64,000 nucleotides of DNA from positions 63,492-127,491 of the forward strand of contig JAXGPC010000005.1 in the NCBI GenBank assembly GCA_040767155.1, read 5' to 3'. This stretch comes from Anaerolineae bacterium (GTDB lineage: Bacteria > Chloroflexota > Anaerolineae > B4-G1 > SLSP01). The notes below the pieces were generated by a model that did not search any database, was not told the DNA's origin, and saw nothing but the letters and a program-made list of their open reading frames with translations. Shown piece after piece: positions 25,007 to 42,240 of the stretch (position 1 is the first letter of the stretch; each line of letters begins with the position of its first letter). A program made the translations under genes and the position numbers.

Positions 25007-28000
25007 GTGCCATACTGTGATACAGACACCTGGGCACCGAGGGAAAGAATGCAGCGACAAGCGAATGGCAGCCTCGGCTCACGCCCGACGGTCGGCATCG
25101 TCATGCGGGGCTTCCGCCGCCCCGACTATGACATCTGGCTGAGTGCGACGGAGGCTGCCGGTGAGGCAGGCCTCAATGTTCTGACCTTTGCCGGTCAGCC
25201 ACTCCGGTCTCCCGTTGGGTACGAGCACCAGGCCAACTCGGTATACGATCTGATCAACCCTCGCCGGCTGGCTGGTATTATCTTGCTTACCAGCGGGCTG
25301 GGCCTCTATGTGGGGGTTGAGGGGATGCGCTCCTTCTGTGCTCCCCTGTCTGGCACCCCCCTTGTGAGCGTCCAGATGCTCTTGCCCGGTATTCCCAGTA
25401 TCCTCATCGACAATTACCGGGGAATGCGCGAGGTTGTCGACCATCTCATCGACGTGCACGGCTACCAGCACATAGCTTTTTTGCGCGGCCCCTTGACCCA
25501 CCGTGGGGCGCGCGAGCGCTATCGCGCCTATGTGGAGTCGCTCGAGGCCCACACTATTGCGGTTGATCCCCACCTTGTGATGCCTCCTGGCGAGGGTTGG
25601 GAGAACCGTGAGGGCATTGGGCGGTTCTTGGCAGGCTTTGGGCGCCAGCTTCCTCGCCGTGTCGAAGCGATTGTGGGTACGAGCGCCTCACTGGCACAGC
25701 AGGCGCTGGCGTGGCTGGTGCAGCATGGCTTCCGCGTTCCCGAAGATGTTGCGCTGACTGGGTTCGACGACTTTCCCCACCTGACCGGCATGACGCCTCC
25801 GCTGACGACGACACACGCTCCTTTCGACGAAGTAGGTCGCAGGGCTATCTCGATGCTGCTGGCACAAATGCGGGGTGAGCAGGTCCCCTTGGTCCAGGAA
25901 ATACCGACACGGATCGTCGTCCGTCAATCCTGCGGCTGCCCTAGCGAAGCAACTCTTCGCGCTAGCCTGCTGCGTCCGGATAGGGTCGCAACTGTACCCC
26001 TACGGATCAATACTCTGGCTGCTGATCCGGTTCCCGCTCTACAGGCTCGGAGGGAAGAAATCGTGCCGGAGATCATCCAGCTGGTTTCCGGTCATGCCAC
26101 CACGAACTGTGAAGAGCTGGGCACCTGGGCTGCCAGGTTGATTGATGCACTGATCGCCGACCTGAGCGCCCCGGAGTCCCAGCTCAGCAAGGTTTCTGCG
26201 GACTCGTCCTTCGTGAGACTCTTGGCGCAGGCGGTGCTCGATTGTGCGCAGGGACGTCACGATGTGACGTGCTACCAGGATCTCATCTCATTGTTGCGCC
26301 GTGTTGCCATCGGCCCGTTGATGGCCCCAATTGGCGCCATTCCTGCACCGATAGCACGCAGCTGGGCTCTTGCCGAGGAGCTTTTCACGCAGGCACGGAT
26401 CATCGCCGGACAGAGTGCTGAGAGTCTCGTCGCAGCTTCGCAGTTTGCTATGGGGCAGCAAGCTGTCTCATTGACGCAGGTGGGACACATCCTTACGACC
26501 GTGACCGATATGGACGAGCTCAGGACCACTTTGGCGCAAGAACTGCCAAAACTCGGCATCCGGGGGTGCTTTGTAGCACTCCGTGAGGAAGGATCGTCTG
26601 ACATAGGACAGGTCCGACTTCAGTTTGCAAGTACCGCAAGGGGTCCTATTGACGTGCCGGACGTCGGTGTGTGTGCCCGGGTCGAGGAGATTCTTCCGGC
26701 AGGCATGTTCCAGCAGCTTGATCGCGATGGTCCATTCAATCTGGTGGCTGAATCGCTCTTTGTGCGCCACGACCAGTATGGATATGTTCTGTTTGGCGTA
26801 GGGCCGCGCGATATCCTCTTCGAGGATCAACCAACACAGAGTACGGTGTATGACCTGGTGCGAAGTTATATCAGCGACGCGCTTTGCGGCATCTTGCTTT
26901 ACGATCAAGCCGTGCGTGCGCGGCAACAAGCTGAGGAGGCCGACAGGCTCAAAAGTCGCTTCCTGTCCATGGTGAGCCACGAGTTAAGGACCCCACTGAA
27001 CCTGATCGTCAGCGTGAGCGAGATGCTGTTGTGGGAACAGCACAGTCACGAACAGGAGCTCATGCGCATTCATGCCAGTGCCCAGCATCTGGACGGCCTG
27101 ATCCGCGACGTATTGGACCTGGCCAGCAGCCAGGTCGGCCAACTCCGTCTGGTCCGCGAGCCACTTGATCTCCGGCAGGCGTTGGAGGTTGTGCTGATGA
27201 TTGGGCAGCAGATGGCGCAGGACAAGGGGCTGGCCTGGTCGACGCAAATCCCGGAGTCGTTACCGCGAGTTCTGGGCGACCGGACCCGGCTACGCCAGGT
27301 TGCACTGAACCTGGTCAGCAATGCCATCCGCTTCACGTCAGCGGGTGAGGTGCGTCTGGCCATAGAGACGGCCCCGGGTGAGGTCAAGGTGCTCGTGAGT
27401 GACACTGGCATTGGCGTACCGTCAGAAGAACATGAGTCCATCTTCGATGAGTTCAGGCAGTCGGAGCGAACCACCACCCGTGGATATGGTGGCCTGGGAT
27501 TGGGGTTGGCGATCAGTCGCCGACTGGTCGAGATGCACGGTGGCACAATAGGTGTCACCTCTAGCGGCGTGGAGGGCGAGGGAGCCACGTTCTACTTCAC
27601 GTTGCCGACCGTGGGGCCAGGGTGCGCCAGCCAACCGGACTTCCGCGACTCCCAGGCTGCAAGGATGGTCTTGGTAGTCTCCGAAGCCGACAGTGAGGCT
27701 CGCGAACTGTGTGCCTACCTCGAAGATGCCGGATATGGGGTGCATGAGTTCCGCATCGAAGGGCGTGAGGCCCTTAACAACCCTGAGGCGTGGCTCAAAG
27801 AAGTACTCCTGTGTGCGCCGAGCGCCGTAATCCTGGGCATGGGACCGGCATCGGAACACGGCTGGGCGATGCTCAAGGTACTCAAAGAGAATCCCGCAAC
27901 ACAGAGCATCCCTGTATTGTTCTATGCATTGTTGCAGTCGGATCGGGGCGGTTCTATGCTTGCTCTGGATTACCTTACCAAGCCAATGAGCATTGCTGAT

Positions 28001-28795
28001 CTGGTCCAGGTGCTGGAACGACAGGGGGTTGCGGTATGGGAAACCCGTGATGGGGACGGGCGTGTTCCTGGCTGTGAGCTTCCAGCTACGATCCTGCTCG
28101 TTGACGACGAACCCGAGATTCTCGGCACGCACAGTTGGCTTTTGCAGTCACAGCTCCCCGACAGCCGGATTCTTCAGGCAACGGACGGGCGCCAGGCCCT
28201 TGAGACAATGTCCACCCTACGACCTGACTTGGTGCTCCTCGACTTGATGATGCCGGGAATGAGTGGTTTCGAGGTGATCGCAGCAATGCAGACGTCTCCC
28301 CATCTGGCCGATGTTCCGGTCGTGGTCCTCACAGGCAAGACTTTGACGGAGCAGGAACTGGAGCAGCTCAACCAGGGTGTTGCTGCTGTGCTCAGCAAGG
28401 GCTTGTTCTCTGCCCAGGAGACACTGCGCCATCTGGAGACTGCACTGCAACGTGGTTTTGTCGCCAACCCAGAGACCCGTAGGCTGGTGCGGCGGGCTAT
28501 GGCTTACATTCATGAGCACTATATGGAGCCGATCGCCCGTAAGGAGATCGCTGCGCACGTCAGCATCAGTGCGAGGCATCTGGATCGTTGTTTCTCCGAT
28601 GAGATCGGGATTACACCCATGGCTTACCTCAACCGCTTCCGCCTGCGGAATGCCAGACGGTTGCTCCAGAGCACGACGTTGAGCATCAGCGAGGTCGCCG
28701 CAGCCGTAGGGTTCTCCGATAGCAGTTACTTCTGCAGAGTGTTCCGGCGCGACCTGGGAATGTCGCCGACAGACTACCGGCACCTTCAGGTCTGA
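25007..28795 (+). CDS. hybrid sensor kinase/regulator. Domain order: LacI-type periplasmic-binding-protein-like sugar-binding domain without HTH; helical/GAF-like region; HisKA; HATPase_c; pseudo-receiver; receiver; AraC-type HTH
   Basis: Approximate domains. PBP type-I sugar-binding fold at about 25090-25930 (TVGIVMRGFRRPDY...LTGFDDFPH...). H-box SHELRTPLN, with the His codon at 26978. HATPase N/G boxes (LVSNAIRFT...DTGIGVP...GGLGLGLAI) at about 27300-27600. A receiver-like domain without the phospho-Asp at about 27665-28010. A canonical REC (ILLVDDEPEIL...LVLLDLMMPGMSGFEV...VVVLTGK) at about 28090-28400. AraC HTH (ISEVAAAVGFSDSSYFCRVFRRDLGMSPTDYR) at about 28470-28785. No TM segment or signal peptide. 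Confidence 0.85.
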   Translation: MPYCDTDTWAPRERMQRQANGSLGSRPTVGIVMRGFRRPDYDIWLSATEAAGEAGLNVLTFAGQPLRSPVGYEHQANSVYDLINPRRLAGIILLTSGLGLYVGVEGMRSFCAPLSGTPLVSVQMLLPGIPSILIDNYRGMREVVDHLIDVHGYQHIAFLRGPLTHRGARERYRAYVESLEAHTIAVDPHLVMPPGEGWENREGIGRFLAGFGRQLPRRVEAIVGTSASLAQQALAWLVQHGFRVPEDVALTGFDDFPHLTGMTPPLTTTHAPFDEVGRRAISMLLAQMRGEQVPLVQEIPTRIVVRQSCGCPSEATLRASLLRPDRVATVPLRINTLAADPVPALQARREEIVPEIIQLVSGHATTNCEELGTWAARLIDALIADLSAPESQLSKVSADSSFVRLLAQAVLDCAQGRHDVTCYQDLISLLRRVAIGPLMAPIGAIPAPIARSWALAEELFTQARIIAGQSAESLVAASQFAMGQQAVSLTQVGHILTTVTDMDELRTTLAQELPKLGIRGCFVALREEGSSDIGQVRLQFASTARGPIDVPDVGVCARVEEILPAGMFQQLDRDGPFNLVAESLFVRHDQYGYVLFGVGPRDILFEDQPTQSTVYDLVRSYISDALCGILLYDQAVRARQQAEEADRLKSRFLSMVSHELRTPLNLIVSVSEMLLWEQHSHEQELMRIHASAQHLDGLIRDVLDLASSQVGQLRLVREPLDLRQALEVVLMIGQQMAQDKGLAWSTQIPESLPRVLGDRTRLRQVALNLVSNAIRFTSAGEVRLAIETAPGEVKVLVSDTGIGVPSEEHESIFDEFRQSERTTTRGYGGLGLGLAISRRLVEMHGGTIGVTSSGVEGEGATFYFTLPTVGPGCASQPDFRDSQAARMVLVVSEADSEARELCAYLEDAGYGVHEFRIEGREALNNPEAWLKEVLLCAPSAVILGMGPASEHGWAMLKVLKENPATQSIPVLFYALLQSDRGGSMLALDYLTKPMSIADLVQVLERQGVAVWETRDGDGRVPGCELPATILLVDDEPEILGTHSWLLQSQLPDSRILQATDGRQALETMSTLRPDLVLLDLMMPGMSGFEVIAAMQTSPHLADVPVVVLTGKTLTEQELEQLNQGVAAVLSKGLFSAQETLRHLETALQRGFVANPETRRLVRRAMAYIHEHYMEPIARKEIAAHVSISARHLDRCFSDEIGITPMAYLNRFRLRNARRLLQSTTLSISEVAAAVGFSDSSYFCRVFRRDLGMSPTDYRHLQV

Positions 28796-28851: not shown

Positions 28852-29007
28852 GCCGATCCCCAAGCATGTCCACTTTGTGCTAGCGCGGTGTCCACAACGT
28901 GCGAGACAACACTATAGGCTTCCAATATACTTAAGTTGTGGGAATGGGTATATCAAAATACTAATGAAGTGACCTCTGAAGTCAGTTACCTCGAGCGGGC
29001 ATGAGAG

Positions 29008-29418
29008 ATGGCGTTGCCCAGATTGCTACTGGTTGAGAACGATCCGTACTACATCTACTTGCTCCGAATGTATGCGGAACAGAGTGGGTTTGCCGTTGTC
29101 GTGGCCAGTTCGGGGATGGGGGTTGAGGCACTGGCACAACGGGAGAAGCCCGTTGTCATTGTTCTGGAGTCAGACCTCCCCGAGGTGAGCGGTTGGGAGG
29201 TCCTTTCAAGGCTGCGCTCCGAGCCATGTACGCAGACAACACCGGTAGTGATCTGTCTGTGGCAAGACAGCGAACGAGGCTATGAGGTGCACTCAACGGA
29301 GTTCGTGCTTCACAAGCCGATGGAGTTCGACGACTTTGTCTATGCACTCAGCACTTTGGGCGTGCTGTCCGGCGACAATCTTGGGCGCCCGCACTATCCT
29401 GCGCCGGCAGATGCCTGA
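29008..29418 (+). CDS. stand-alone response-regulator receiver domain protein
   Basis: CheY-like fold: LLLVENDPY...[18 protein letters not shown]...HKP with a conserved phospho-acceptor Asp context. No output domain. First gene of the 18 kb same-strand cluster. Confidence 0.65.
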
Positions 29419-29477
29419 GGCGTTTGCCTGCGGTTGGAGCACAGCCAGCATCGCACGACCGTGATGAGGAAGAGTCT

Positions 29478-30530
29478 ATGACCAACATCCAGACCCGAGA
29501 ACCGGCGCAGTATCTCCTGGAAGTTAATAACCTGAGGAAGCATTTCCCCATCACCCGGGGCTTTTTCTCCACAAAGACAGTGGGATATGTCAAAGCGGTG
29601 GATGATGTGAGCTTCTTCATCCGTCCAGGAGAGACGTTGGGTCTGGTGGGAGAGAGTGGTTGCGGGAAGACGACCACTGGGCGCGTCATCATGCGCGCCT
29701 ATGAACCGACCGGGGGCGAGGTGTGGTTCGATGACCAGGATCTTGGGCGTATCAATGTCGCCGATCTGGATCGACATCAACTCAAGCAGATGCGACAGAA
29801 CATGCAGATGATCTTCCAGGACCCCTATTCGTCTCTTAACCCTCGCATGACGCTACTGCAGATCGTTGGCGAACCCCTCTACGTCAATGGAATCGCCAAA
29901 GGATCCGAACTGCAGGATCGTGTGGCGAATCTGCTCCGTGTCGTTGGGCTCCGGCCGGAGTATATGACACGCTATCCCCATGCATTCAGCGGTGGGCAGC
30001 GGCAGAGGATTGGCGTCGCGCGAGCTTTGGCGGTGAACCCACAGCTCGTGGTCTGCGATGAACCGGTCTCGGCGCTGGACGTCTCCATCCAGGCACAGAC
30101 GCTAAACCTGCTTCAGGACCTGCAAGAGGAGTTCAATCTTACGTACCTCTTCATCTCGCACGATCTGAGTGTCGTCGAGCATATCAGTGACCGTGTTGCC
30201 GTGATGTATGTCGGCAAGCTGGTGGAACACGCCGCGACCAGCGTGCTGTTCTGGCATCCCCTTCATCCTTACACCGAAGCCCTGCTGTCTGCGGTCCCGA
30301 AGCCTGACCCGCGCTTCAGAACGGAGCCTATCGTCCTGGAGGGGGATGTCGCTGATCCTGCTAACCCGCCCAGTGGCTGTTATTTCCATCCTCGCTGCCG
30401 CTATGCACAGCCCATCTGTTCCGAGGAAGCGCCTGTGCTACGGGAGTTGGAGAAAGATCACTTTGTGAGTTGTCACCGGGCTGAGGAGCTTCACCTGATG
30501 GGTGTCCTCGGGAGGGAAAACACTGCCTGA
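29478..30530 (+). CDS. Opp/Dpp-family ABC transporter ATP-binding protein, OppF/DppF-like
   Basis: Walker [10 protein letters not shown], signature LSGGQRQR, Walker [13 protein letters not shown] and an Opp C-terminal domain ([10 protein letters not shown]). Preferred start is ATG at 29478 after a GAGGAAG RBS. Confidence 0.85.
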
Positions 30531-30644
30531 GATCAGCGAAGGAGGTGCGTATTGCCAGATGCTGTGATTGACCCGCCTTGTGTGCGGGAGCTGTTGTGAA
30601 TTGGGCATCCGTTTCCTAGCATCAGTATCAGGAGGTTGTAATCG

Positions 30645-32726
30645 ATGAGTCAGCGACATAAGCTAACTCGGCGCCAGTTCCTGTACCTGTCCACTCTGGC
30701 AACTGCTGGTGCGGTTGCTTCGGCTTGTGGCGGACCTCTTACCCCGGAGGTAACCGAGCCGGAGCCGACCGCAGTGCCCGCGGAGCCTACGGCTGTGCCA
30801 CCTACGGCCAAGCCCGATGAGCCAGAAGCGACGGCGAAGCCCGCGGAACCCACAGCGGTACCGGAGCCCGTGAGCATGTACAAGGAAGCCCCGATGCTGG
30901 CAGCTCTGGTGGCATCGGGCGATCTTCCCCCGGTTGAGGAGCGCCTGCCCCTGAACCCGTACGTTGTCGATTGTCGTGAGTCCATTGGCAAGTACGGCGG
31001 GAACCTCCGCCGTGGCTTCAAGGGCGTCTCTGATCGCTGGGGACCCACGAAGCACGTCGACCGGACCCTCGTCTGGCTGGATCGCGACATGAATCTAATC
31101 CCCCGTCTCATCGAGAGCTGGGACGTCAGCGACGATGCCAAGACGTTCACGTTCCACCTGCGCAAGGGTCTCAAGTACTCCGATGGCGTGGAAATGACCA
31201 GCGCGGACTTCAAGTGGTATTACGAACACTATGCCGCGCATCCGGATCTCCAGCCGGGCTTGTGGACGAAGCTGACGACGGTTGGCGAGGATGGCAAGAA
31301 GGTTCTGTGTGAGGCAGAGTTCCCCGATGACTACACCGTCGTCTACAAGTTTGCGCATCCGAATCCCCTTCTGATGTACCAGGGGCTGCGCGAACTCCAT
31401 GGGTTCTCTATGCCTTCTCACTACATGAAGCAGTTCCACATTGACACAACGGATGACGTGGCCGCCCTCGAAACAGCCACCACGGAGGCCGGATTCAACG
31501 CCTGGAACGAGTACTTCGAAGACCGCCATTTGTTCCATCTGAATCCGGAGCACCCGTGGCCCACGCCGTGGATTGCCAAGAACTCGCTCAATGAGGAACT
31601 CTTCATGATGGAGCGAAACCCCTACTACTTTGGCGTCGATCCCGAAGGGAACCAACTCCCGTACCTCGATACGGTCACGCATCGCCTGTTCGAGGCCATC
31701 GATGTTTTCAACCTTTGGATCGTGAACGGGGAAATCGACTTCCACAACCGCCACGTCGCGCTTGCCAACTACAGCCTCTTCAAGGAGAACGAGGCCAACG
31801 GCGACTACAAAGTATTTGTGGGTGTCAGCGCCGGCCATGATGCGCTTCAACTCAACCTGGCGACCAAGGAGCCCAAGCTCAACGAGTTCTTCAACACGCG
31901 CGATGTCCGCATTGCCATCTCCCACGCCATCAATCGAGATGAGTACAACGACCTGATCTACGATGGCATGTGTACGCCGCGTCAGTACAGCCCGATCTCG
32001 CTGTCGGCCAACTACTATCCCAAGCTGTCAGAGGCCTACATCGACTACGATCCTGATCTGGCGAACCAGATGCTCGACGATGCGGGGTACGACCAGCGTG
32101 ACTCTGAAGGCTATCGGATGTTCAAAGATGGCAGCGGCCCAATCAGTTTCATCATCGAGGGCACGGCTGAGCCCGGTAGCAGTGGTGAGGATGGGGTACT
32201 GCTGATCGTGAAGTACCTGAACGATGTCGGCATCAAGGCGACTTGGAAGTACTTTGAGCGCTCGCTCTACACCGAGCACTATGAAGCCAATGAGATCGAG
32301 GCGGCGTGGTGGGGCGGTGACCGTACGGTGCTTCCATTGGCACCTTCGGCGATCATCTTCCGCGGTGTACAGCCTGACCGGCCATGGGCGGCCGGCTTCG
32401 GTCTGTGGTGGGAGGATGCTACCGATCCCAATGGTGTTGAGCCACCCGAGGGGCACTTCATCTGGAAGATCTGGGAAGCCTGGGACAAAGTTGCCGCGTC
32501 CCCGGACCCCGCGGATCAGAACAAGCACTTCCAGGAGCTCCTGGATATCTGGGCCGAGGAGTTGCCGATGATCGGTGTGGTGGGCGAGATGCCTGCCCCC
32601 ATCATTGTCAAGAACGGCTTCCACAACTACCTGCCAGGCCAGCCCATCGATGATACGTCTGGCGATGAGCACCTGCTGCAGACGGAGTCCTACTTCTGGG
32701 ACGATCCAGACGCGCACGCGGCCTAG
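30645..32726 (+). CDS. ABC transporter substrate-binding lipoprotein, SBP family 5 (peptide/oligosaccharide), with Tat-like signal and a Pro/Thr/Ala-rich linker
   Basis: N-terminal RRQFLYLSTLATAGAVASACGG (twin-Arg plus lipobox Cys), then a low-complexity linker (EPTAVPAEPTAVPPTAKPDEPEATAKPAEPTAVPEP), then a family-5 SBP fold. Length 693 aa. Confidence 0.85.
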   Translation: MSQRHKLTRRQFLYLSTLATAGAVASACGGPLTPEVTEPEPTAVPAEPTAVPPTAKPDEPEATAKPAEPTAVPEPVSMYKEAPMLAALVASGDLPPVEERLPLNPYVVDCRESIGKYGGNLRRGFKGVSDRWGPTKHVDRTLVWLDRDMNLIPRLIESWDVSDDAKTFTFHLRKGLKYSDGVEMTSADFKWYYEHYAAHPDLQPGLWTKLTTVGEDGKKVLCEAEFPDDYTVVYKFAHPNPLLMYQGLRELHGFSMPSHYMKQFHIDTTDDVAALETATTEAGFNAWNEYFEDRHLFHLNPEHPWPTPWIAKNSLNEELFMMERNPYYFGVDPEGNQLPYLDTVTHRLFEAIDVFNLWIVNGEIDFHNRHVALANYSLFKENEANGDYKVFVGVSAGHDALQLNLATKEPKLNEFFNTRDVRIAISHAINRDEYNDLIYDGMCTPRQYSPISLSANYYPKLSEAYIDYDPDLANQMLDDAGYDQRDSEGYRMFKDGSGPISFIIEGTAEPGSSGEDGVLLIVKYLNDVGIKATWKYFERSLYTEHYEANEIEAAWWGGDRTVLPLAPSAIIFRGVQPDRPWAAGFGLWWEDATDPNGVEPPEGHFIWKIWEAWDKVAASPDPADQNKHFQELLDIWAEELPMIGVVGEMPAPIIVKNGFHNYLPGQPIDDTSGDEHLLQTESYFWDDPDAHAA

Positions 32727-32925
32727 GGCACGTGCTTGTCGACTGTCGGGGGCGGGCTCTTGCACCCGCCCCCACTGGCAGCGTGCGGGATAAGTGATAA
32801 GGGACAAGAGATAAGGGGCAAGGAACAGGGGAGGCGATGAGAGGCCCAGGCTATGCCTTGAACTTCTCTTTGCCACTCCCTTATCCCCTATCCCTTCTCA
32901 CCTATATGAGGGCAGGAGGACGCGA

Positions 32926-33915
32926 ATGCTGAAGTACATACTCAAGCGGATCGCGATCATGATTCCCACGCTAATCATGATCTCGATGATCTCGTTTGCG
33001 ATCATTCAATTGCCGCCCGGGGACTACCTTACCTCCTATGTGGCCGGGCTGCGCCAGATGGGTGATAACGTGGATGAGACCGAGATCGAGGCGCTCCGAC
33101 AGCGGTATGGGCTCGGCCAGCCGGTCTATGTTCAGTACTATAAGTGGGTCTCCGGAATAATCCTGCGGGGTGACTGGGGTCAGTCCATGGAGTGGCGCAA
33201 ACCGGTCAAGGACCTCATCTGGGAGCGGATGGCCCTGACAGTGGCGCTGTCCCTGGTCTCGGTTCTGGTGAGTTGGTTCGTGGCGATTCCCGTCGGGGTG
33301 TTTTCGGCGACCCATCAGTACTCACTGCCGGACTACGTCTTCTCGGCCCTGAGCTTCATTGGCGCGGGCTTGCCGGGTTTCATGATCGCTTTGGTGGTCA
33401 TGTGGGTGGCAATGCGCCAACTGGGACTCAATGTGGGTGGGCTCTTCTCACAGGAATACCTGGTGGCACCCTGGAGCTGGCCCAAGTTCGTAGACCTCCT
33501 CAAACACCTCTGGATCCCTGTACTCATTGTCGCACTGGGGAGCACGGCGGGCAGCATTCGTACGACGCGTGCCAACGTGCTGGATGAACTCAACAAACCC
33601 TATGTCGAGACGGCCCGTGCCAAGGGACTGAAGGAGCGGAAGTTGGTTTGGAAGTATCCGGTGCGCGTGGCGATGAACCCCTTCTTTAGCACGGTGGGCT
33701 GGACGTTGGCCAATCTCATTTCCGGTCAGACGTTGGTGGCCTATGTGCTCAGTCTGCAGACAACGGGACCGATGATGCTGCGTGCCCTGACATCGCAGGA
33801 TATGTATCTGGCAGGCAGTTTTCTATTGCTGCTGAGCACGCTCACGGTTATTGGCACGCTGATATCGGACATTCTGCTGGCGTGGTTCGACCCCCGCATT
33901 CGGGTGGAGGGCTAG
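32926..33915 (+). CDS. ABC transporter permease, DppB/OppB-like
   Basis: Six TM segments and the EAA-like motif region (ARAKGLKERKLVWKYPVRVAMNP) of binding-protein-dependent permeases. Confidence 0.85.
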   Translation: MLKYILKRIAIMIPTLIMISMISFAIIQLPPGDYLTSYVAGLRQMGDNVDETEIEALRQRYGLGQPVYVQYYKWVSGIILRGDWGQSMEWRKPVKDLIWERMALTVALSLVSVLVSWFVAIPVGVFSATHQYSLPDYVFSALSFIGAGLPGFMIALVVMWVAMRQLGLNVGGLFSQEYLVAPWSWPKFVDLLKHLWIPVLIVALGSTAGSIRTTRANVLDELNKPYVETARAKGLKERKLVWKYPVRVAMNPFFSTVGWTLANLISGQTLVAYVLSLQTTGPMMLRALTSQDMYLAGSFLLLLSTLTVIGTLISDILLAWFDPRIRVEG

Positions 33916-33918
33916 AAG

Positions 33919-35103
33919 ATGACAACCTCACCACGAGGTATCCCCGAGGAAGTGCGTGACCGGCAGGCGCTGGATAGAAGTCTTGAGGAAGAGGCCGCTG
34001 GCTTACAGGAGGAACGGCTCTATGTCGCCAGCCAATGGCAGTTGATGTGGTGGAAGTTCCGCAGACACAAGCTGGCAATGGCTGGAGGCGTCATCCTGAT
34101 CATCTTCTACCTGGTAGCCATCTTTGCGGAGTTTGTCGCGCCCTATGATCCCGAGGCCTACTTCGCCCGGTACAAACTGGCGCCGCCGACGCCCATCCGC
34201 ATCATCGATACCGAGGGTAACCTGCACCGCCCCTTCATCTACCAACGCGACCGCGTACGCAATGAAGAGACGCTGCGCTACTACTACATTGACGACATCA
34301 CGATCCTTCATCCCGTCAGGTTCTTCGTAAAGGGAACTCCCTACAAGCTCTGGGGACTCTTCGAAACCGACGTGCACCTTTTCGGCGTTGAGGCGGCCCG
34401 GGAGGAGCAGGGCGTGTTCCTGGCTGGTGCGGACCGGCTGGGGCGCGATGTGTTCTCACGACTTTGCTATGGCGCGCGGATCTCCCTTTCGATCGGTCTC
34501 ATTGGCGTTTTGTTGAGCCTGTTCCTGGGGATCATCTTGGGTGGGATCTCAGGATACTATGGCGGACGGATCGACACGATCATCCAGCGGGTGATCGAGT
34601 TCGTGCGCACGATTCCGAACATTCCATTGTGGATGGCGTTGAGTGCCGCTTTGCCCGCAGACTGGCCGGTAGTCCGACTCTACTTTGGCATCACCATCAT
34701 TCTCTCACTTATCGGGTGGACCGGGATGGCGCGGGTAGTTCGAGGGCGTTTCCTGGCGCTCCGCAATGAGGACTTTGTCCTGGCGGCGCGGCTCTGCGGC
34801 TCCAGTGAGATCCGCATCATCCTGCGGCACATGGTGCCTTCGTTCTTGAGTCATATCATTGCGAGCCTCACTATCGCGATACCTGGTACGATTCTCGGCG
34901 AGACAGGCTTGAGCTTCATCGGTCTGGGTCTGCGTGCTCCAGCGATCAGTTGGGGGGTTTTGCTACAGGAGGCCCAGAACGTCCGTTCGCTGGCACAGGC
35001 GCCTTGGGTCTTTGCCCCCGCTTTCGCCGTCGTGCTGACCGTGTTCGCTTTCAACTTCCTGGGCGACGGGCTTCGGGACGCGGCGGACCCGTACGCCCGT
35101 TAG
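33919..35103 (+). CDS. ABC transporter permease, DppC/OppC-like, with extended N-terminus
   Basis: OppC-type motifs (LGRDVFSRLCYGARISLSIGL...) and C-terminal TM bundle. It starts 4 nt after the previous gene. Confidence 0.85.
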   Translation: MTTSPRGIPEEVRDRQALDRSLEEEAAGLQEERLYVASQWQLMWWKFRRHKLAMAGGVILIIFYLVAIFAEFVAPYDPEAYFARYKLAPPTPIRIIDTEGNLHRPFIYQRDRVRNEETLRYYYIDDITILHPVRFFVKGTPYKLWGLFETDVHLFGVEAAREEQGVFLAGADRLGRDVFSRLCYGARISLSIGLIGVLLSLFLGIILGGISGYYGGRIDTIIQRVIEFVRTIPNIPLWMALSAALPADWPVVRLYFGITIILSLIGWTGMARVVRGRFLALRNEDFVLAARLCGSSEIRIILRHMVPSFLSHIIASLTIAIPGTILGETGLSFIGLGLRAPAISWGVLLQEAQNVRSLAQAPWVFAPAFAVVLTVFAFNFLGDGLRDAADPYAR

Positions 35104-35119
35104 TGATAGGAGCACATCA

Positions 35120-36154
35120 GTGGACAGTAATGACCTGCTCGTAGAAGTAAAGAACCTGCAGACCTACTTCTTCCTCGATGAGGGTACGGTTCGTGCGGTG
35201 GACGGCTGCGATTTCGATATCCATAGAGGCGAAGTCCTGGGTGTTGTGGGGGAGAGCGGCTGTGGGAAAAGCGTCACTGCACGGTCGATTATCAGAATTG
35301 TGGCCAAGCCGGGTCGTATTGTGGGCGGGCAGATTCTCTACCACCGGCGTCCAAATGGCAGCGGGCATGGAGAGGTGATCGATCTGACGAAGCTTCCGCC
35401 GCAAGGGGATGAGATGCGCCACATCCGCGGTGGTGAGATCTCGATGGTTTTTCAGGAGCCGATGACGTCTCTTAGTCCGGTTCACACAATTGGCAATCAG
35501 ATTGTTGAGGGCATTGTGCTACACCAGAACGTGGGCCCGGAGGAGGCGCGCGCGCGGGCAATCGAAATGCTGGACTTTGTGGGCATGCCATTCCCCAGCC
35601 GCACCATCGATCAGTTCTCGTACGAACTCAGCGGCGGGATGCGCCAACGCGCGATGATCGCTATGGCTCTCTCCTGCAACCCCAGCCTCCTGATCGCTGA
35701 TGAGCCCACGACGGCTCTCGATGTGACGACCGAAGCTCAGATTCTCACACTTATGCGCCGCTTGCAGTATGAGTTGGGAATGGCGATTATGTACATCACC
35801 CACAACCTGGGCGTAGTCGCACAGATGGCCGAGAATGTGGTTGTGATGTACATGGGAAAGATCGTGGAACAGGCCGATGTCGACACGATCTTCCACAAGC
35901 CACTGCATCCGTACACGCGGGCGCTGCTGCATTCCATCCCGCGTCTGGGAACCAAGACTGCAGAGCGGCGACGCCTCGCCTCCATCAGAGGGATGGTACC
36001 TGATCCCTACGCGCTCCCCAGAGGTTGTGCGTTTCACCCGCGGTGCAGTGACATGAGACCCGGCATGTGTGACGAGGTTGAGCCGCCCATGGTTGAGGTG
36101 GAGCCGGGACACAAGGTTCGCTGCCATCAGATTGCCGAACTACCCCAACCATGA
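35120..36154 (+). CDS. Opp/Dpp-family ABC transporter ATP-binding protein, OppD/DppD-like
   Basis: Walker A GESGCGKS, signature LSGGMRQR, Walker [13 protein letters not shown] and C-terminal CAFHPRC motif. Confidence 0.85.
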
Positions 36155-36157
36155 GAT

Positions 36158-37885
36158 ATGAAAGCATTCCTGGTCTTCCCCCCCCATTGGCTACCAACCA
36201 TGCCTCATCTTGCGCTGCCGATGCTCACCGCATCGCTGCGAGCGACGGGGATCGAGGTCATCCAGCGCGACCTCAATGTGGAGGTCTTTGACAGCCTGCT
36301 GACCCAGGCCTATCTCGAAGATTCCCTGGCACGCCTGGCATCGGAGCCGCCTGCAACTCTCACGCCCACCACAGTGAGACATGCGCTCGATCACGGCGCT
36401 GACCTTGCCCGTCGGGTTACGTCGGCCAAGGCGGTGATTCGCGATGCACGTTTCTACGATGGCCAAACCAGCGTCGAAGCGTTTATGACACTGGTTCAGG
36501 GGCTGGAGTTGGCGTCAATGCCATTCCACCCTACAGAGTTCCAGATCACCAGGTTCGTACCTCCGGGGTCGGTTGACAGTAGCCGGACGTTGCTGCAACT
36601 GGTCGAGGACCCTGGACGCAACCCCTTCTACGCCGTCTTTCAACGTGGCATTGTCCAGGATATCCTCCACGAACTTCCAGACCTTGTGGGGATCTCTATC
36701 CCTACCATGGACCAGATGCTGGCAGGAATGACCCTGGCCTATCTGCTCAAGCGAGCAGGGTCACCAGCGCATGTGACGATCGGCGGCCCGCACATTACGA
36801 TGCTGCGCGAGCAACTCCTGAAAACGCCAGCGCTGTTCGATCTCTTCGATAGCGCAGTTGTCTTCGCCGGCGAGGGTCCGCTTCTGCGATTGATGGAAAC
36901 CATCGACCAGGGCCATGCTCTCTCCAAGGTGCCCAATCTGATCTATCGAGAGCGGGGACGAGTTCGTGCTACACCTGTGGTGCCGGCGGGGGACTGTGCA
37001 GTCGCCGACTCCCGGGGCCCTGACTTTGACGGTCTGCCGCTCGACAGGTACCTGACTCCTGAACTGATCCTGCCGTTGTTGAGCTCCTATGGGTGTTACC
37101 ACGGAAAGTGTGCGTTCTGCAACGTGGGGTATGGTGGACCAGATCGATTCCGGATGATGGACCCTGACCTCGTCGTGGACCAGATGCGCGCGCTCCGGCA
37201 ACGCTACGGTAGCCGTCACTTCTTCTTTTCTGATGAGGCCCTGACGCCGCGAACACTACGGGTTCTGTCGACGCGGCTTGCCGAAGGGGGAGATGACCTG
37301 GCCTGGTGTGGTTGCGCACGCCTCGATCCAGGCCTGACACGGGAGTTGCTGGAGACGATGGCGAGCGGTGGGTGTCGTATGCTTCTCTTTGGGTTGGAGA
37401 CGGCTGCCGAGTCGACGATCGCGCGGATGCATAAGGGTACCGAGCGACAGACGATGAGCCGCATCCTCCGCGATAGCGCGACGGCCGGAATGTGGAACCA
37501 TGCTTTCTTCTTCTTTGGTTTTCCAGGAGAAACGATGGAAGCGGCGCAGGAAACGGTGGATTTCCTCTATGCGCATCAGGATGCCATTCATTCGGCATCG
37601 CCCGGAGCCTTTCTCCTGGAACGCTACGCACCGGCGCACCGCGACCCGGCCAGCTATGGCATCACACGCATCCAGGAAGACCCTGTGCGCGATCTGGCCA
37701 TTTACTTCGACTATGACGTAGCTTCGGGACTGGACGAGGCCATGGCGGACCGCCTGGCGTCGAGGCTCGTCGATGTGCTGCCCAACAAGGCATTCGGACA
37801 GTACTATGTGGCAGATAGTTACCGGTTCCTGTATGCCAGCCATCTTTGGGACCACGGCGAGCGGTTTCCGCTCTGGTTGGCATAG
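36158..37885 (+). CDS. B12-binding-domain radical SAM protein (class B rSAM-like) with non-canonical cluster motif CYHGKCAFC (Cx4Cx2C)
   Basis: N-terminal cobalamin-binding-like Rossmann region (MKAFLVFPPHWLPTMPHLALPMLTASLRATGIEV). rSAM core SSYGCYHGKCAFCNVGYGG...FFFSDEALTP, then a C-terminal extension. It starts 4 nt after the oppD-like stop, so it is co-transcribed with the ABC transporter. Confidence 0.75.
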   Translation: MKAFLVFPPHWLPTMPHLALPMLTASLRATGIEVIQRDLNVEVFDSLLTQAYLEDSLARLASEPPATLTPTTVRHALDHGADLARRVTSAKAVIRDARFYDGQTSVEAFMTLVQGLELASMPFHPTEFQITRFVPPGSVDSSRTLLQLVEDPGRNPFYAVFQRGIVQDILHELPDLVGISIPTMDQMLAGMTLAYLLKRAGSPAHVTIGGPHITMLREQLLKTPALFDLFDSAVVFAGEGPLLRLMETIDQGHALSKVPNLIYRERGRVRATPVVPAGDCAVADSRGPDFDGLPLDRYLTPELILPLLSSYGCYHGKCAFCNVGYGGPDRFRMMDPDLVVDQMRALRQRYGSRHFFFSDEALTPRTLRVLSTRLAEGGDDLAWCGCARLDPGLTRELLETMASGGCRMLLFGLETAAESTIARMHKGTERQTMSRILRDSATAGMWNHAFFFFGFPGETMEAAQETVDFLYAHQDAIHSASPGAFLLERYAPAHRDPASYGITRIQEDPVRDLAIYFDYDVASGLDEAMADRLASRLVDVLPNKAFGQYYVADSYRFLYASHLWDHGERFPLWLA

Positions 37886-37958: not shown

Positions 37959-38411
37959 ATGCGAAGATTGGCAGACCAGATTGCCGTGTTCCTGGCCTGG
38001 GCCGTGGCTACGGCTCTCGGCTTCTGGGCCATGGTGGTGGTCAGGCAGGCTCTGATGTCAAGCCTGGCGGTGCACTATGTGGGGGATTCGGTACGGCGTG
38101 GCTGGGTCGCCCGTTTCTGGGGTCAGGCCTATTACGCGATCGCCGGGCTGGTCTACCTCATCTTCATCTTTGTCGTCGATGGCTATCTCAAGGATGGCAG
38201 GCCGAAGCGCGATGTGTTCCGACGATTTTGCGCCGTGGTTGGTGGTGAGCTTCTGATCATTTTCGTTGCCGATGTCGTGACGTCATGGGTGCAGAGTACT
38301 ATGCTTGGACACCTAAGTCGCATCCTGATACCGGTTGAGGGGATCATAGGCGTCACAATGGTGGTCTATGCGCGACTGCACAGGGCTGCGAACCAGCGGA
38401 TAAGCAAATAA
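37959..38411 (+). CDS. small integral membrane protein, about 4 TM, hypothetical
   Basis: Hydrophobic segments (IAVFLAWAVATALGFWAMVVV; YYAIAGLVYLIFIFVV; VVGGELLIIFVADVV; IIGVTMVVYA). Sits inside the same-strand cluster. Confidence 0.4.
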   Translation: MRRLADQIAVFLAWAVATALGFWAMVVVRQALMSSLAVHYVGDSVRRGWVARFWGQAYYAIAGLVYLIFIFVVDGYLKDGRPKRDVFRRFCAVVGGELLIIFVADVVTSWVQSTMLGHLSRILIPVEGIIGVTMVVYARLHRAANQRISK

Positions 38412-38487
38412 GCGCCGGGGCACAGAGCCGCCCGAGCTTGTCCTCCATTTATCAAGAACCTTCCTCTCCAGAAGGAGAACTACCGTC

Positions 38488-41061
38488 ATGACGACAACCT
38501 GCGCCCGCTATGCCCTACAGGACGGCTACATCCACAACTGGTTGGTCCTGGGACCTTGGATTGCTTCCAGCGAGGGTGCTCGTGGCCTTCTCGCGGACCG
38601 ATCCTCTGACCCCGTCGTCCGTGTCGAGGCCTTGGAGCCTGCCTCGGTTGATGATGGAATTGTGGCATTCGAGGACTTTGAGGGCCGCTGGCAGTATCAT
38701 TCCTGTGCGGAGGACCACTTCGTAGATCTTTCCGACTTCACCTGCAGCACTCTTCATCTCCCTTCGGACCGACACCTGGTTGCGTGGGCCTATGTAGAGC
38801 TCGAGGTGCCTGCTGCGGGACCGGTGGGTGCTGTGGTGACCACAGCCTGGCAGCAGGGAGACACATCCGCCAGTGTCTGGATCAACGGGCTCCCACTTTT
38901 GGACGGGGACCCCCCAGTTGATCTGTCGCCTTCTTCTCCTCGTAGCTCGCACCTCAAGATGGACCTGGAGGCGGGACGCAACAGGGTCCTGGTCCGCTTT
39001 GAAGTGGTCGCAGCACGACCGTGCGCCTTTGCTGTTGCCTTGCGGGTCGAGGACGTGGCAGCAACGGTGTGTCTACCTACGGCGATCGAGCGTATTGAGC
39101 GGCGGGAACGGTTGGAGCGGGTCTTTCGGGCGGCACAAACGGATCGTTATGTATTCGCCCGCGAGGACGAGATCCGGTTCCGTTGGCCGTCGAAGGATGA
39201 GCCTGGCGGTACCTTCGACGACGCGACGCACATGACGGCACGCCTGTGCTCCCGTTCCGGCAGGATCTATGTCGAGACCGATCGAACTGCGCTGGCAGGC
39301 GATGCGGTGCGTCTGTGTCACGCTTACCAGCAGATAGGCGGTGCTTTCGATCTGGTCCTGATGCCGAGGCCTCAAGAGTACTACGAGCACGGCATGCGCA
39401 TCAGCCGGGCTATTCCTCTGTGGAGCCTTGGTAACAACCGCTATACGGAGTCATCAACCGATACCTTGCTCGAGCGGCGACGCGAGGCACTCGTCAGTGC
39501 CGCACGCTATGAAGCCGGTATCTACTCCGAGCTCGCCAAAATGGCACTGGGTTGGTGGTCGTTTGTGGACGAGGACCGGCTGCTCAAGCGGGTTGAGTCT
39601 CTCGGCGCTTTGAGCGGGCGGGATTGTCGCGAGCTGTTGGGCTTCTTGGGCATGATGTGTCGTTTTGTGGAAAAGCCCGAGTTCCCCGAACGGTTGCGTG
39701 CTGGGCTTTTCGCGATGGTTCCGGCATTGGAGTTCCCCGCCATAGGAGACGAGCTGCGCCCGGAAATCGCAGGGGACCCCCATGAACTGGTTGAGGCTGT
39801 TTGCGCGATTCTCGCGGGCCAGCTCTGTCCTGATGCCCCTCCGGGCGCAGCGTCTCCGACCGGAGAGGCGCGTCGCGAGCACGGGGCGAGACAGGCGCTC
39901 GCCTGGATGCAGGCGGTTGCGGCGATGGGGTTACGCGCGTGGCATTCCGATGTCGCCTTTGAGGAGACCGTCCTGGCGCTGGCGCACCTGATTGGCTATG
40001 CCGACAGCGAAGAGGTGTGGCAAATGGCGACGGTGCTGCTCGACAAGCTGCTCTTCCAACTGGCTGTGAATTCCTTCATGGGCGTGTTTGGGACCAGTCG
40101 GGGCACGACGTCGACGGCACATCTCTTTGGTGGGCATCTAGCGGCCACATCGGGCATCACGAAGCTGCTCTGGGGACAGGGGGTCTTCAATCCCAGTTTT
40201 GCTGCAACGGTGAGCCTTGCATGCCTCACGGAGTACGAGGTTCCCCTTATGTTCGGGGACATCGCCACCCAATCACTTGAGGAGGGGCTCTGGAGCCGTG
40301 AACGTCACGGATTGGGAGGCGTCAGCACTGCCACGTTCAGGACCCCTGCGTCGATGCTCTCTGCAGCATTGGACTACCGGCCCGGCGAGCCAGGTGAGGA
40401 AGAGCATATCTGGCAGGCCACGTGGGGTCCTGCGGCGACCGTCTTTGTAACGCACCCCGCCGCCAGCAGTCTGAGCGATGCGTGGGGCCCCAACTTCTGG
40501 CGTGGCAACGGCGTTCTCCCACGGGTGGCACAGTGGCGCGATGCTCTGATTGCCCTGTATGCCTTGCCTGCTGATGATTGGATGGGCTTCACCCACGCAT
40601 ACTTCCCAATGGTTGCATTTGATGAAGGGGCTGTCCGTGGCCGGTGGGCTTTTGCTCGCAAGGGAGACGGCTACCTGGCACTGGGAGCCAGCCAGGATCT
40701 CTTGCTGATACGCACCGGAGAGTCGGCCTACCGTGAGTTGCGTGTCAAGGGACGGCACACGGTCTGGCTCTGTCAGATGGGGCGAGCCTCGGAAGATGGC
40801 GACTTCGCCACATTCCAGGAGAAGGTCCAGGCGCTCTCGGTCACCTATGGCGAACTCAGTGTGTGCTGGGAAACGCTGCGCGGTGACACGCTCGCCTTTG
40901 ATTGGACAGGCCCATTCCTCAGGAATGGTGAACCTCTGGCTCTTTCAGTGGAGAACGCGATCGAGAACCCCTACTGTTCTGCTGGCTTCCCCACTGATGC
41001 GATGGAAATCCGTCACGGCGATGTGGCGATGCGGCTCGACTTCGCCACACATCGCTCATAG
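38488..41061 (+). CDS. large cytoplasmic protein (857 aa) whose C-terminal half is paralogous to the two downstream proteins; possible heparinase II/III-like (alpha/alpha-toroid plus beta-sandwich) polysaccharide lyase or hydrolase family, unverified
   Basis: AAGGAG RBS before ATG. C-terminal motifs shared with 42309-44237 and 44256-46178: YRPGEPGEEEHIWQATWG / YRAGKPGYQQHIWQATL; NFWRGNGVLPRVAQ / NYWAGNGVMPRAAQHEN; FTHAYFPMVAFDE / FSHAYFPTEAFDE; FARKGDGYLAL / FGRKGDGYVAL. N-terminal roughly 200 aa look like a beta-sandwich (galactose-binding-like) domain. No signal peptide. Confidence 0.65.
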   Translation: MTTTCARYALQDGYIHNWLVLGPWIASSEGARGLLADRSSDPVVRVEALEPASVDDGIVAFEDFEGRWQYHSCAEDHFVDLSDFTCSTLHLPSDRHLVAWAYVELEVPAAGPVGAVVTTAWQQGDTSASVWINGLPLLDGDPPVDLSPSSPRSSHLKMDLEAGRNRVLVRFEVVAARPCAFAVALRVEDVAATVCLPTAIERIERRERLERVFRAAQTDRYVFAREDEIRFRWPSKDEPGGTFDDATHMTARLCSRSGRIYVETDRTALAGDAVRLCHAYQQIGGAFDLVLMPRPQEYYEHGMRISRAIPLWSLGNNRYTESSTDTLLERRREALVSAARYEAGIYSELAKMALGWWSFVDEDRLLKRVESLGALSGRDCRELLGFLGMMCRFVEKPEFPERLRAGLFAMVPALEFPAIGDELRPEIAGDPHELVEAVCAILAGQLCPDAPPGAASPTGEARREHGARQALAWMQAVAAMGLRAWHSDVAFEETVLALAHLIGYADSEEVWQMATVLLDKLLFQLAVNSFMGVFGTSRGTTSTAHLFGGHLAATSGITKLLWGQGVFNPSFAATVSLACLTEYEVPLMFGDIATQSLEEGLWSRERHGLGGVSTATFRTPASMLSAALDYRPGEPGEEEHIWQATWGPAATVFVTHPAASSLSDAWGPNFWRGNGVLPRVAQWRDALIALYALPADDWMGFTHAYFPMVAFDEGAVRGRWAFARKGDGYLALGASQDLLLIRTGESAYRELRVKGRHTVWLCQMGRASEDGDFATFQEKVQALSVTYGELSVCWETLRGDTLAFDWTGPFLRNGEPLALSVENAIENPYCSAGFPTDAMEIRHGDVAMRLDFATHRS

Positions 41062-41082: not shown

Positions 41083-42240
41083 ATGGCAAAGACAGGCGTA
41101 GGTGCACGTTGGGAATCGGAATTGTCCGTCCACCAGGACCCGAAGAGCGGGGCCACGGTCCACCAGTTGACAGCCTATAAGGGCCATAGTAGCCACTTCT
41201 ACTTCACATATCCGTGCTGGTATGACAAGGGCAGAAAGATCGTGTTCACCTCCGATCGCGAGAACCGGACGAACCTGTTTGGCGTTGACCTGGAGAGCGG
41301 CGAAATTACCCAGCTCACGGATTTTGACTCTGCGGAGGGAGGTGTCGGTGGTCTGAGCAAGAACCCGGTACGAGAGGAGATCTACTTCCACCGTGGTAGG
41401 GTCTTGACAGCGCTCGACCTGACGACGCTGGAGCAGCGTCCGATCTATACGCGCCCTGAAGGCTACGTGGGTGGCAGTTCGAATGCGACGGCTGACGGCA
41501 AGACCATCTGTGTGGGACACTACAAGGATCTCTCGGATCGCTTTATGATCGATCTGGGTCACGGCTACGTTGGTTTCCGCGAGATCTGGGAAGCCCATCC
41601 GCCCTCAACGATCTTGAAGATCCCGGTCGAGGGCGGCACCCCTGAGGTGATCTATCAGGAGGATTATTGGTTGGGGCACTTCAACTGCTCGGGTAAGCAC
41701 CCCAACATTATGACCTTCTGTCACGAGGGACCGTGGACACTGGTAGAGAATCGGATCTGGGGCCTTGACCTCAATACGGGTGAAGCTTGGCAGATCCGCC
41801 CCAATGCGCCTGGCGAGGCGATCGGGCACGAGTACTGGATGAGCGATGGCGAGCACATCGGTTACCACGGCACCACGCCGCAGGGGCCGGTCTACGGCGC
41901 GATCCGTTACGACAACACCGATCAAGTCGAGGCACCCTTTGAGGGGCATTGCTGGCATTTTCACAGCCATATGCTTGAGCTGGTGGTCGGTGACGGCGAT
42001 GCCAAGGATCCGTATCTGCTGCTGTGGCGCTTTCACGAGGGGGCGTTCGAAGGGCCAAAGGTCCTCGTCTGGCACCGCGGCTCTTTCCATACACAGCGGG
42101 TCCACCTCCACCCTTGCTTCAACAGCGAGGGGACGCAGGTGATCTATACGGCTGACCCACAGGGGTATGGGCAGGTCTTTGCTGTAGATGTGCCGGCGTG
42201 GGAGACGCTTCCTGACTTGGCCGATGTGAAGGCGAGGTGA
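41083..42240 (+). CDS. ogl: oligogalacturonide lyase (PL22 family, Ogl-like beta-propeller)
   Basis: Aligns with enterobacterial Ogl: TFCHEGPWTLVENRIW vs AFCHEGPHDLVDARMW; LELVVGDGDA vs TLLVGDGADA; HLHPCFNSEGTQVIYTAD vs HPHPSFTPDDKQVLFTSD. 385 aa, cytoplasmic. Confidence 0.8.
   Translation: MAKTGVGARWESELSVHQDPKSGATVHQLTAYKGHSSHFYFTYPCWYDKGRKIVFTSDRENRTNLFGVDLESGEITQLTDFDSAEGGVGGLSKNPVREEIYFHRGRVLTALDLTTLEQRPIYTRPEGYVGGSSNATADGKTICVGHYKDLSDRFMIDLGHGYVGFREIWEAHPPSTILKIPVEGGTPEVIYQEDYWLGHFNCSGKHPNIMTFCHEGPWTLVENRIWGLDLNTGEAWQIRPNAPGEAIGHEYWMSDGEHIGYHGTTPQGPVYGAIRYDNTDQVEAPFEGHCWHFHSHMLELVVGDGDAKDPYLLLWRFHEGAFEGPKVLVWHRGSFHTQRVHLHPCFNSEGTQVIYTADPQGYGQVFAVDVPAWETLPDLADVKAR

Follow-up and report, generated by a model that had tools for sequence, protein, structure and literature searches.

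A predicted cytoplasmic hybrid regulator with a LacI-type sensor and an AraC output beside a putative carbohydrate-import operon of Anaerolineae

Sludge, digesters, sediments and soils harbour abundant carbohydrate degraders of the Chloroflexota (Anaerolineae and relatives), and to our knowledge the regulation of their glycan-utilisation loci has hardly been described. Among described systems, the hybrid two-component systems (HTCS) of Bacteroides offer a precedent for an AraC output controlled by a receiver (REC) domain, and their receivers carry an S/C-H-I-P motif in the alpha3-beta4 loop, with His, Ile and Pro each present in >90% of 6908 HTCS (PMC11253607). In Firmicutes, three-component sugar sensors are represented by YesM/YesN-like systems and by clusters of Ruminiclostridium cellulolyticum (PMC5663094). 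The present analysis concerns a gene of an Anaerolineae bacterium, located in a 64-kb stretch of contig JAXGPC010000005.1 (64,000 nucleotides; hereafter the window), for which an initial annotation had proposed a soluble hybrid regulator of 1262 aa that controls an adjacent uronate utilisation cluster. The protein combines a LacI/GalR-type ligand domain, a globin-like bundle, a GAF fold, a histidine kinase, two receivers and an AraC-type DNA-binding domain. It was considered reasonably probable that the protein works in the cytoplasm as a two-component regulator in a single polypeptide and controls the adjacent operon for carbohydrate import and degradation by the mechanism proposed below.

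Reading frame and domain anatomy

The LacI/GalR-type ligand domain, of the type-I periplasmic-binding-protein (PBP) fold, occupied residues 14-298 (25088..25942, + strand), with ~13 residues ahead of its first strand and no helix-turn-helix (HTH) domain before it. It was matched by Pfam Peripla_BP_3 at residues 130-295 (5.8e-31) and by Peripla_BP_1 at residues 15-288 (6.8e-08), and the LacI-type HTH (PF00356) was absent from the regulator at E ≤ 0.1 in the Pfam search. Sequence matches of the N-terminal domain in the PDB were to LacI-family regulatory cores only (best 9nt3, 1.7e-26), and Foldseek gave target-normalised TM-scores of 0.8-0.86 for the first 300 residues against LacI, CelR (cellobiose), CcpA and RbsR. 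No transmembrane (TM) segment or signal peptide was found in the regulator, in which the highest Kyte-Doolittle mean over 19 residues was 1.58 and fell inside a globular domain. The AlphaFold2 (AF2) model of residues 1-639 was a confident soluble fold (predicted local distance difference test 90; predicted TM-score, pTM, 0.86).

An all-helical bundle, globin-like or of the non-haem sensor-globin-like kind, followed at residues 327-483 (26027..26497, +), with no conserved His for haem in the family alignment. Residues 488-583 (26510..26797, +) adopted a GAF fold, with a six-stranded antiparallel sheet and flanking helices. A long signalling helix into HisKA (residues 600-695; 26846..27133, +) was delimited by the AF2 helix and the HisKA match and carried the phospho-accepting H644; in the model, a continuous 40-residue helix (600-638) led from the GAF domain straight into HisKA. 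The LacI-type domain was closed by an S294-C295-G-C297 motif (25928..25939, +), detected by its invariance in the alignment. S294, C295 and C297, together with H132 and H137 (25442-25459 for both His), were invariant in 71/71 aligned relatives with any output domain, which suggests a putative metal or redox site at the junction of the LacI-type domain. We know of no such C-terminal S-C-x-C motif as a feature of the LacI family.

The kinase comprised HisKA (Pfam, residues 635-695, 2.7e-14), in which H644 was invariant, and an HATPase_c catalytic domain at residues 743-854 (27275..27610, +; Pfam 1.6e-28) with invariant ATP-binding boxes: N754/N758 (N), D785-G787-G789 (G1), F799/F802 (F) and G815-G817-G819 (G2). 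A degenerate receiver, REC1 (residues ~872-1000; 27662..28048, +), matched PDB receivers 3gt7 (1e-4) and 3t6k (2e-4). Its acidic pair was missing throughout the family, K978 was invariant, and the acceptor position 930 was Asp in 37/44 members and Gly in 6/44, the latter including the window protein and its nearest orthologs; with neither the acidic pair nor, at G930, an acceptor, REC1 of the window protein did not qualify as a canonical receiver. The canonical receiver, REC2 (residues 1015-1119; 28091..28405, +; Pfam Response_reg 5.7e-22), had invariant D1019, D1020, D1065 and K1117, and position 1095 was T or S in the family (T1095 here). The H-box His, the N, G1, F and G2 boxes and REC2 together identified the protein as a hybrid histidine kinase. 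The output was an AraC-type HTH_18 DNA-binding domain at residues 1167-1244 (28547..28780, +; Pfam HTH_18 3.3e-26, HTH_AraC 6.6e-20).

All these domains lay in an uninterrupted open reading frame (ORF) at 25007..28795 (+), whose maximal form starts with GTG at 25007 and encodes 1262 aa. Because the closest orthologs (P0001 and P0002) were both 1248 aa long and began with MQRQ, matching an ATG at 25049, this ATG is the likely start and the predicted protein has 1248 rather than 1262 aa; residue numbers of the regulator are counted from it. The gene was accordingly placed at 25049..28795 (+) from the ORF list, the translation, the N-termini and lengths of orthologs, and Pfam.

A search for the same architecture in other genomes returned a recurrent Chloroflexota family with >55 full-length relatives (31-90% identity), all with the same Pfam order and similar length (1170-1320 aa). 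They were drawn from independent NCBI, JGI, ENA and Logan assemblies, comprising metagenomes and metagenome-assembled genomes (MAGs), and those with a source name were all Anaerolineae/Chloroflexota MAGs. Domain junctions were kept across them, as in the invariant RQSCGC at the end of the LacI-type domain. In one Chloroflexia MAG (L008, 9971-13691) the homologous gene was split in two ORFs of 835 and 402 aa, which means either that a frameshift arose in sequencing or that the gene is a pseudogene. Such a split would agree with the long ORF of the window being an assembly or frameshift artefact that fuses a LacI-like gene with a separate hybrid kinase gene, but the independent full-length relatives with identical domain order, the conserved junction region and the single confident assembly modelled by AF2 for residues 1-639 left this explanation effectively refuted and with hardly any probability.

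The domain searches therefore bore out most of the architecture given by the initial annotation: the LacI/GalR-like N-terminus without HTH or TM helix (Pfam, PDB, Foldseek and hydropathy agreed), the complete HisKA and HATPase_c, the one degenerate and one canonical receiver, and the AraC output. Neither of the two ways in which it had foreseen being wrong about the gene, an N-terminus of another fold or an assembly chimera, was encountered. A real and soluble regulator stood, but not its length and start; the ~330 aa described as helical/GAF-like were correct and could be refined to the globin-like bundle plus a true GAF fold.

Association with carbohydrate loci and proposed mechanism

Sugar ATP-binding cassette (ABC) importers and/or carbohydrate-active enzymes (CAZymes) adjoined the regulator in 9/9 non-syntenic family contexts examined. 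The relative P0021 (L004, 42% identity) was accompanied by a receiver, an Opp importer, a radical SAM enzyme and a hydrolase resembling glycoside hydrolase (GH) family GH63, with different genes upstream. An ABC importer and two GH16 enzymes stood beside both P0048 (L005, 35% identity) and P0043 (L088, 41% identity), an ABC importer with GH53 and GH42 beside P0055 (L006, 36% identity), and an ABC importer with GH4, GH88 and GH28 beside P0036 (L007, 34% identity). P0028 (L089, 42% identity) had GH88 and enolases upstream and an Opp importer and a radical SAM enzyme downstream, and P0038 (L090, 34% identity) was found with a GH140-like enzyme, an ABC importer, GH28 and a sulfatase. The member from the Chloroflexia MAG (L008, 30% identity) was surrounded by GH2, GH29, GH127, GH63-like and GH5 enzymes; it came from a contig scan with full-length alignment that matched generic kinase and receiver motifs, mostly of unrelated hybrid kinases, and in which L008 was the sole true member. 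Orthologs with 83%, 60% and 55% identity (L001-L003) had the same neighbouring genes as the regulator gene of the window.

Two full-length LacI-kinase-receiver-AraC paralogs occurred ~6 kb apart in L088 (580-4101, -, and 10001-13549, +), which indicates paralog expansion within one genome.

A repeat search identified a direct repeat, TGTCCACnnnGTGCnAG twice with 22 bp from start to start, at 28867..28905 (+), as a candidate operator. The two copies, TGTCCACTTTGTGCTAG and TGTCCACAACGTGCGAG, lay with this 22-bp spacing within the 212 bp that separate the regulator gene from the stand-alone receiver gene following it. The bipartite pattern occurred once in the window (0.1 / 0.0 expected), the exact pattern was also present in L001 and L003, and the TGTCCA cores were invariant across an alignment of four orthologous intergenic regions. 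No further operator copies were found in the 64-kb window, in which the count of single half-sites was only marginally above shuffles. The promoter-proximal copy overlapped a promoter-like site, GAGACA-17-TATACT (28903..28931, +; consensus scan, weak match, 9/12), in its first hexamer. A repeat that overlaps the -35 region has the geometry typical of AraC-type activators, and the TGTCCAC direct repeat is a candidate operator to which the AraC domain may bind.

As 9/9 non-syntenic contexts were carbohydrate-linked and a conserved operator candidate preceded the operon, the regulator very probably controls the neighbouring importer and enzyme cluster, a role which the initial annotation had proposed and which is the best-supported reading of these contexts and of the operator candidate.

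The family was tentatively aligned to the pocket positions of E. coli LacI, among them R197 and D274 as residues which we take to be sugar-contacting. On this tentative mapping, R157 aligned with LacI R197 and was Arg in 43/44 members, and D240 aligned with LacI D274 and was Asp or Asn in nearly all 44. Most other pocket positions were invariant in 13 orthologs and different in distant members at other loci, a pattern which would be expected for substrate-specific sugar sensing. Cytoplasmic sensing of an imported sugar by the LacI-like domain was the best-supported interpretation, as originally suggested.

The proposed mechanism was drawn in all its steps from anatomy and context. A lipoprotein-dependent Opp-type ABC system would import an oligosaccharide, possibly acidic or uronate-containing, and this sugar or an early cytoplasmic breakdown product would bind in the cleft of the LacI-type domain. 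Closure of this domain would act on the globin-like bundle, which is rigidly attached to it, and would be relayed by way of the GAF domain and the long signalling helix, so that the balance between kinase and phosphatase activity in the dimeric HisKA/HATPase core would shift. The phosphoryl group of H644~P would be handed within the dimer to D1065 of REC2, and phosphorylated REC2 would free or orient the AraC domain, which would then bind the TGTCCAC direct repeat at 28867-28905 over the -35 region and activate the operon from 29008. REC1 and the stand-alone pseudo-receiver are probably non-phosphorylatable docking or modulator modules.

Downstream cluster, wider family and alternative readings

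Genes upstream of the regulator were housekeeping genes: leucyl-tRNA synthetase, a major facilitator superfamily transporter, ThyX, a kinase, RadC and a divergent pyruvate kinase. Directly downstream was a stand-alone pseudo-receiver of 136 aa (29008..29418, +; Pfam Response_reg 4.4e-11), which was also present downstream of the regulator in L001-L004. Its acceptor column was Glu in the window protein and in three orthologs, and L004, which is more distant, had Asp there; E-N stood in place of the acidic pair, Trp replaced Thr/Ser, and Lys was retained. The Glu is a possible phosphomimic. This gene ended 5 bases (29419-29423) before the first ABC ATPase gene.

An Opp/Dpp-type ABC importer followed at 29424..36154 (+; Pfam), consisting of an ATPase, a 693-aa SBP_bac_5 lipoprotein, two permeases and a second ATPase. 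The N-terminus of the 693-aa substrate-binding protein (SBP) had a twin-arginine-like RRQFL and an ASAC lipobox. Long imperfect inverted repeats, GATAAG/GGGA-rich and with arms of up to 28 nt, were observed at 32787-32905 where they filled the 199-bp gap between the SBP gene and the first permease gene, and may form an mRNA-stabilising or attenuating hairpin within the operon. A B12-binding radical SAM enzyme was encoded at 36158..37885 (+; Pfam, NCBIfam); its gene was kept directly after the Opp-type importer in L002, L003, L004 and L089, and such an enzyme is unusual company for a sugar-utilisation cluster.

Two proteins without a recognised family in Pfam, NCBIfam and PDB searches came next (37959..41061, +), of 150 aa (37959-38411) and 857 aa (38488-41061). 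Beyond the lyase gene described below, two more such proteins, of 657 aa (42264-44237) and 640 aa (44256-46178), were followed by a third Opp-type ATPase (42264..47225 in all, +), and none of the four had a Pfam, NCBIfam or PDB match. For the 857-aa protein, at least 190 homologs of equal length were retrieved, all annotated as hypothetical and, where the source was named, from Chloroflexota (Anaerolineae, Caldilineae, Roseiflexaceae); it did not resemble the GH63-like protein that takes its position in L004. The 857-aa protein may represent an unrecognised family of carbohydrate-active enzymes.

Between the two pairs, 41083..42240 (+) encoded a protein similar to oligogalacturonate (uronate) lyases of polysaccharide lyase family 22 (PL22; PF14583 2.3e-33), with full-length PDB matches to 3c5m (3.7e-30) and 3pe7 (5e-29). 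It was identical at the residues aligned to YeOgl R217, H242, H287, Q350, H353 and H355, which we take to be the catalytic Arg/His and the Mn ligands (3 His + Gln); these roles were reportedly assigned by Abbott et al. in 2010. With this catalytic set intact, the protein is a predicted PL22 oligogalacturonate lyase. The cluster ended with a convergent gene at 47281..48345 (-) for an enolase-superfamily protein resembling acid-sugar dehydratases (MR_MLE_C 6.9e-58), for which the best NCBIfam models were talarate/galactarate, arabinonate and galactonate dehydratases, all below cut-offs. Genes of the kdu, uxa or kdg type were not encountered in the annotated ORFs, and an Rfam scan of the window returned one tRNA only, with no riboswitch near the cluster.

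Use of uronates by the cluster is plausible, if thinly supported, because of the PL22-like lyase with conserved catalytic residues, the acid-sugar-dehydratase-like enolase, and the GH88 and enolases beside a related locus. The placement of the regulator directly upstream of receiver, importer and lyase genes agreed with the Pfam annotation. Two points of the earlier description of the cluster stood in part: its orphan receiver was a stand-alone gene but a degenerate one (Glu acceptor, E-N pair, no Thr/Ser), and its uronate assignment had the lyase and the dehydratase-like enolase on its side but the four family-less proteins and the absence of kdu, uxa and kdg genes from the annotated ORFs against it.

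Two further ORFs were recorded in the window: at 49521-50741, one of 406 aa with an odd pairing of a mechanosensitive-channel beta-domain (residues 123-198) and a ParB N-terminal domain (342-397), and at 58946-63373 (-), a 1475-aa subtilase (Peptidase_S8) with CarboxypepD_reg-like repeats, unrelated to the regulator.

The middle region of the regulator, searched alone against 1.84 billion cluster representatives, gave 665 matches at E ≤ 1e-3 and 184 at E ≤ 1e-10, and in full-length targets the match usually began at ~residue 315-420, after a LacI-sized domain. The family comprises several hundred 50%-identity clusters, so that the architecture is recurrent, not a one-off. The cassette of LacI-type, globin-like and GAF domains was also fused to STAS, extra GAF/PAS, GGDEF, MCP-signal, sigma-54 AAA+ and SpoIIE domains. 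In L091 (2496-15382), five tandem genes of 769-926 aa encoded LacI-type...STAS proteins, some with GAF or PAS; the array was reminiscent of the sets of RsbR paralogs in stressosomes, the sensors here being of the sugar-repressor type. A relative from a cultured actinomycete, Actinophytocola sediminis (P0070; 1093 aa, 28% identity over 97% of the query), had Pfam matches to LacI-type, REC and AraC domains and none to HisKA or HATPase, and may be a kinase-dead version; A. sediminis could serve as an experimental host. Public annotation named the family "substrate-binding domain-containing protein". In agreement with the initial annotation, which knew of no characterised protein with this architecture, no description of it was found in the literature searched, which comprised open-access papers only and makes this a weak negative.

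Several observations weighed against a sugar-responsive regulator of the adjacent operon. The mapping of the pocket onto LacI was tentative. The synteny of L001-L003 proves little on a functional link and was weak evidence for it because it ran into housekeeping genes, well beyond the cluster. The promoter match was weak (9/12), the regional count of such matches was not above shuffles, and the consensus used was that of sigma-70, from which Chloroflexota promoters may differ; the operator was single in the window, so that it offered no repetition at the level of a regulon. The globin-like and GAF folds and the invariant CxC could be the true inputs or additional ones, and the Opp-type importer and the B12 radical SAM enzyme also fit a peptide-type substrate.

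The last two points each lead to a different explanation. The LacI-type domain might serve mainly for dimerisation or as a scaffold, or bind a protein partner (as in CcpA-HPr) or a metabolite other than a sugar, with the signal sensed by the globin-like/GAF pair or at the His/CxC site (redox, metal or small nucleotide), so that expression of the locus would follow physiological state and not substrate. Indeed, none of the 71 relatives departed from the S-C-x-C motif or from H132/H137, whichever output they carried, small molecules and redox changes are classically sensed by GAF and globin-like folds, and the reuse of the cassette with STAS, GGDEF, MCP and sigma-54 outputs, like the five tandem STAS paralogs of L091, is not obviously sugar-specific. 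This explanation was nevertheless considered unlikely: the Arg and Asp/Asn equivalents were kept in 43-44/44 members and the other pocket positions co-varied with locus type, the differing CAZyme sets of the nine contexts are most simply explained by substrate-specific sensing, and the globin-like part lacked a conserved haem His. Less probable still was that the cluster handles peptides or a modified peptide and that the signal read by the regulator has nothing to do with uronates. The SBP_bac_5 protein and the oligo_HPY ATPases are of the Opp/Dpp class, the best NCBIfam models of the radical SAM enzyme were C-methyltransferases of ribosomally synthesised and post-translationally modified peptides (far below cut-offs), and four cluster proteins had no family assignment; yet in L004 a GH63-like hydrolase came after the block of importer and radical SAM enzyme and in L089 GH88 came before it, the cluster itself contained the predicted PL22-like lyase with its catalytic set intact and ended with the acid-sugar-dehydratase-like enolase, the sensor domain was of the sugar-repressor type, and Opp-class transporters import oligosaccharides in Thermotogae. 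Sensing of an imported sugar by a regulator of the adjacent operon was therefore preferred.

A broader hypothesis was entertained with considerable doubt. The cassette may represent a cytoplasmic sensory module of Chloroflexota not described before, one that would combine binding of imported sugars with a second input (metal or redox, at the junction) and would be plugged into at least six outputs (HK-REC-AraC, where HK is the histidine kinase, STAS/stressosome-like, GGDEF, MCP, sigma-54 AAA+ and SpoIIE), its HK-REC-AraC form being an independently evolved soluble counterpart of HTCS and the main regulator of Chloroflexota glycan loci.

Relation to described systems

The family offers a testable answer to how Chloroflexota loci are controlled, by soluble, post-import sensing and an apparent convergence on the HTCS solution. 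It may act as a genomic marker for substrate-specific loci in MAGs, and its modular, soluble cassette is attractive for biosensor engineering. It also raises the mechanistic question of why a LacI-type sensor should act via an ATP-consuming phosphorelay in one protein and not by direct fusion to a DNA-binding domain.

The LacI/GalR repressors (LacI, CelR, CcpA, RbsR, PurR) shared with the regulator a homologous two-lobed core (1.7e-26; TM-score to 0.86), conserved residues that tentatively align with the sugar-binding Arg and Asp of LacI, and contexts of sugar catabolism. They differed in their N-terminal HTH and hinge helix, which the regulator lacked, and in their direct binding to operators as repressors, whereas output here would pass by phosphorelay to an AraC domain that is probably an activator. 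Membership of the LacI/GalR transcription factors was rejected: the PF00356 HTH was lacking, although the type-I PBP effector fold was present.

The Firmicutes three-component sensors resembled the regulator in combining a PBP-fold receptor, a histidine kinase and a REC-AraC protein that control an adjacent ABC/CAZyme cluster in a monoderm host. They consist of separate proteins and sense extracellularly, whereas the regulator is fused and would sense intracellularly, after import. Similarity to the RsbR-type stressosome sensors (non-haem globin N-domain plus STAS) was at fold level only, with 8-15% identity, and the regulator differed from them in its kinase/REC/AraC output.

The Bacteroides HTCS (e.g. 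BT1754, BT4124, BT4663) likewise join HisKA, HATPase_c, a receiver and an AraC HTH in one polypeptide, and their paralogs have expanded, each beside a different glycan-utilisation locus. The sensor of BT1754 has a periplasmic-binding-protein fold. A receiver that gates a tethered AraC domain is likely to be a further shared trait (PMC11253607). The sensor of the regulator differed in being cytoplasmic, without signal peptide or TM helices, and of the LacI-repressor subtype, with globin-like and GAF domains behind it; between the kinase and the true receiver there was a further, degenerate one; and the loci of the family used ABC importers and not SusC/D, in hosts of the phylum Chloroflexota. 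The S/C-H-I-P motif was absent, residues 1087-1090 being A-D-V-P, with the His in 3/44 and the Ser/Cys in 11/44 family members. The placement beside polysaccharide-utilisation genes that characterises HTCS was found in 9/9 non-syntenic contexts, in ABC-based loci. Membership of the Bacteroides HTCS was thus rejected for want of a TM/periplasmic sensor and of the S/C-H-I-P receiver motif; of the earlier view of the protein as a cytoplasmic variant of these systems, the HK-REC-AraC fusion and the placement at the locus held, but these same two features told against it. The regulator looks like an independent analogue of the Bacteroides HTCS, which are its nearest functional analogue.

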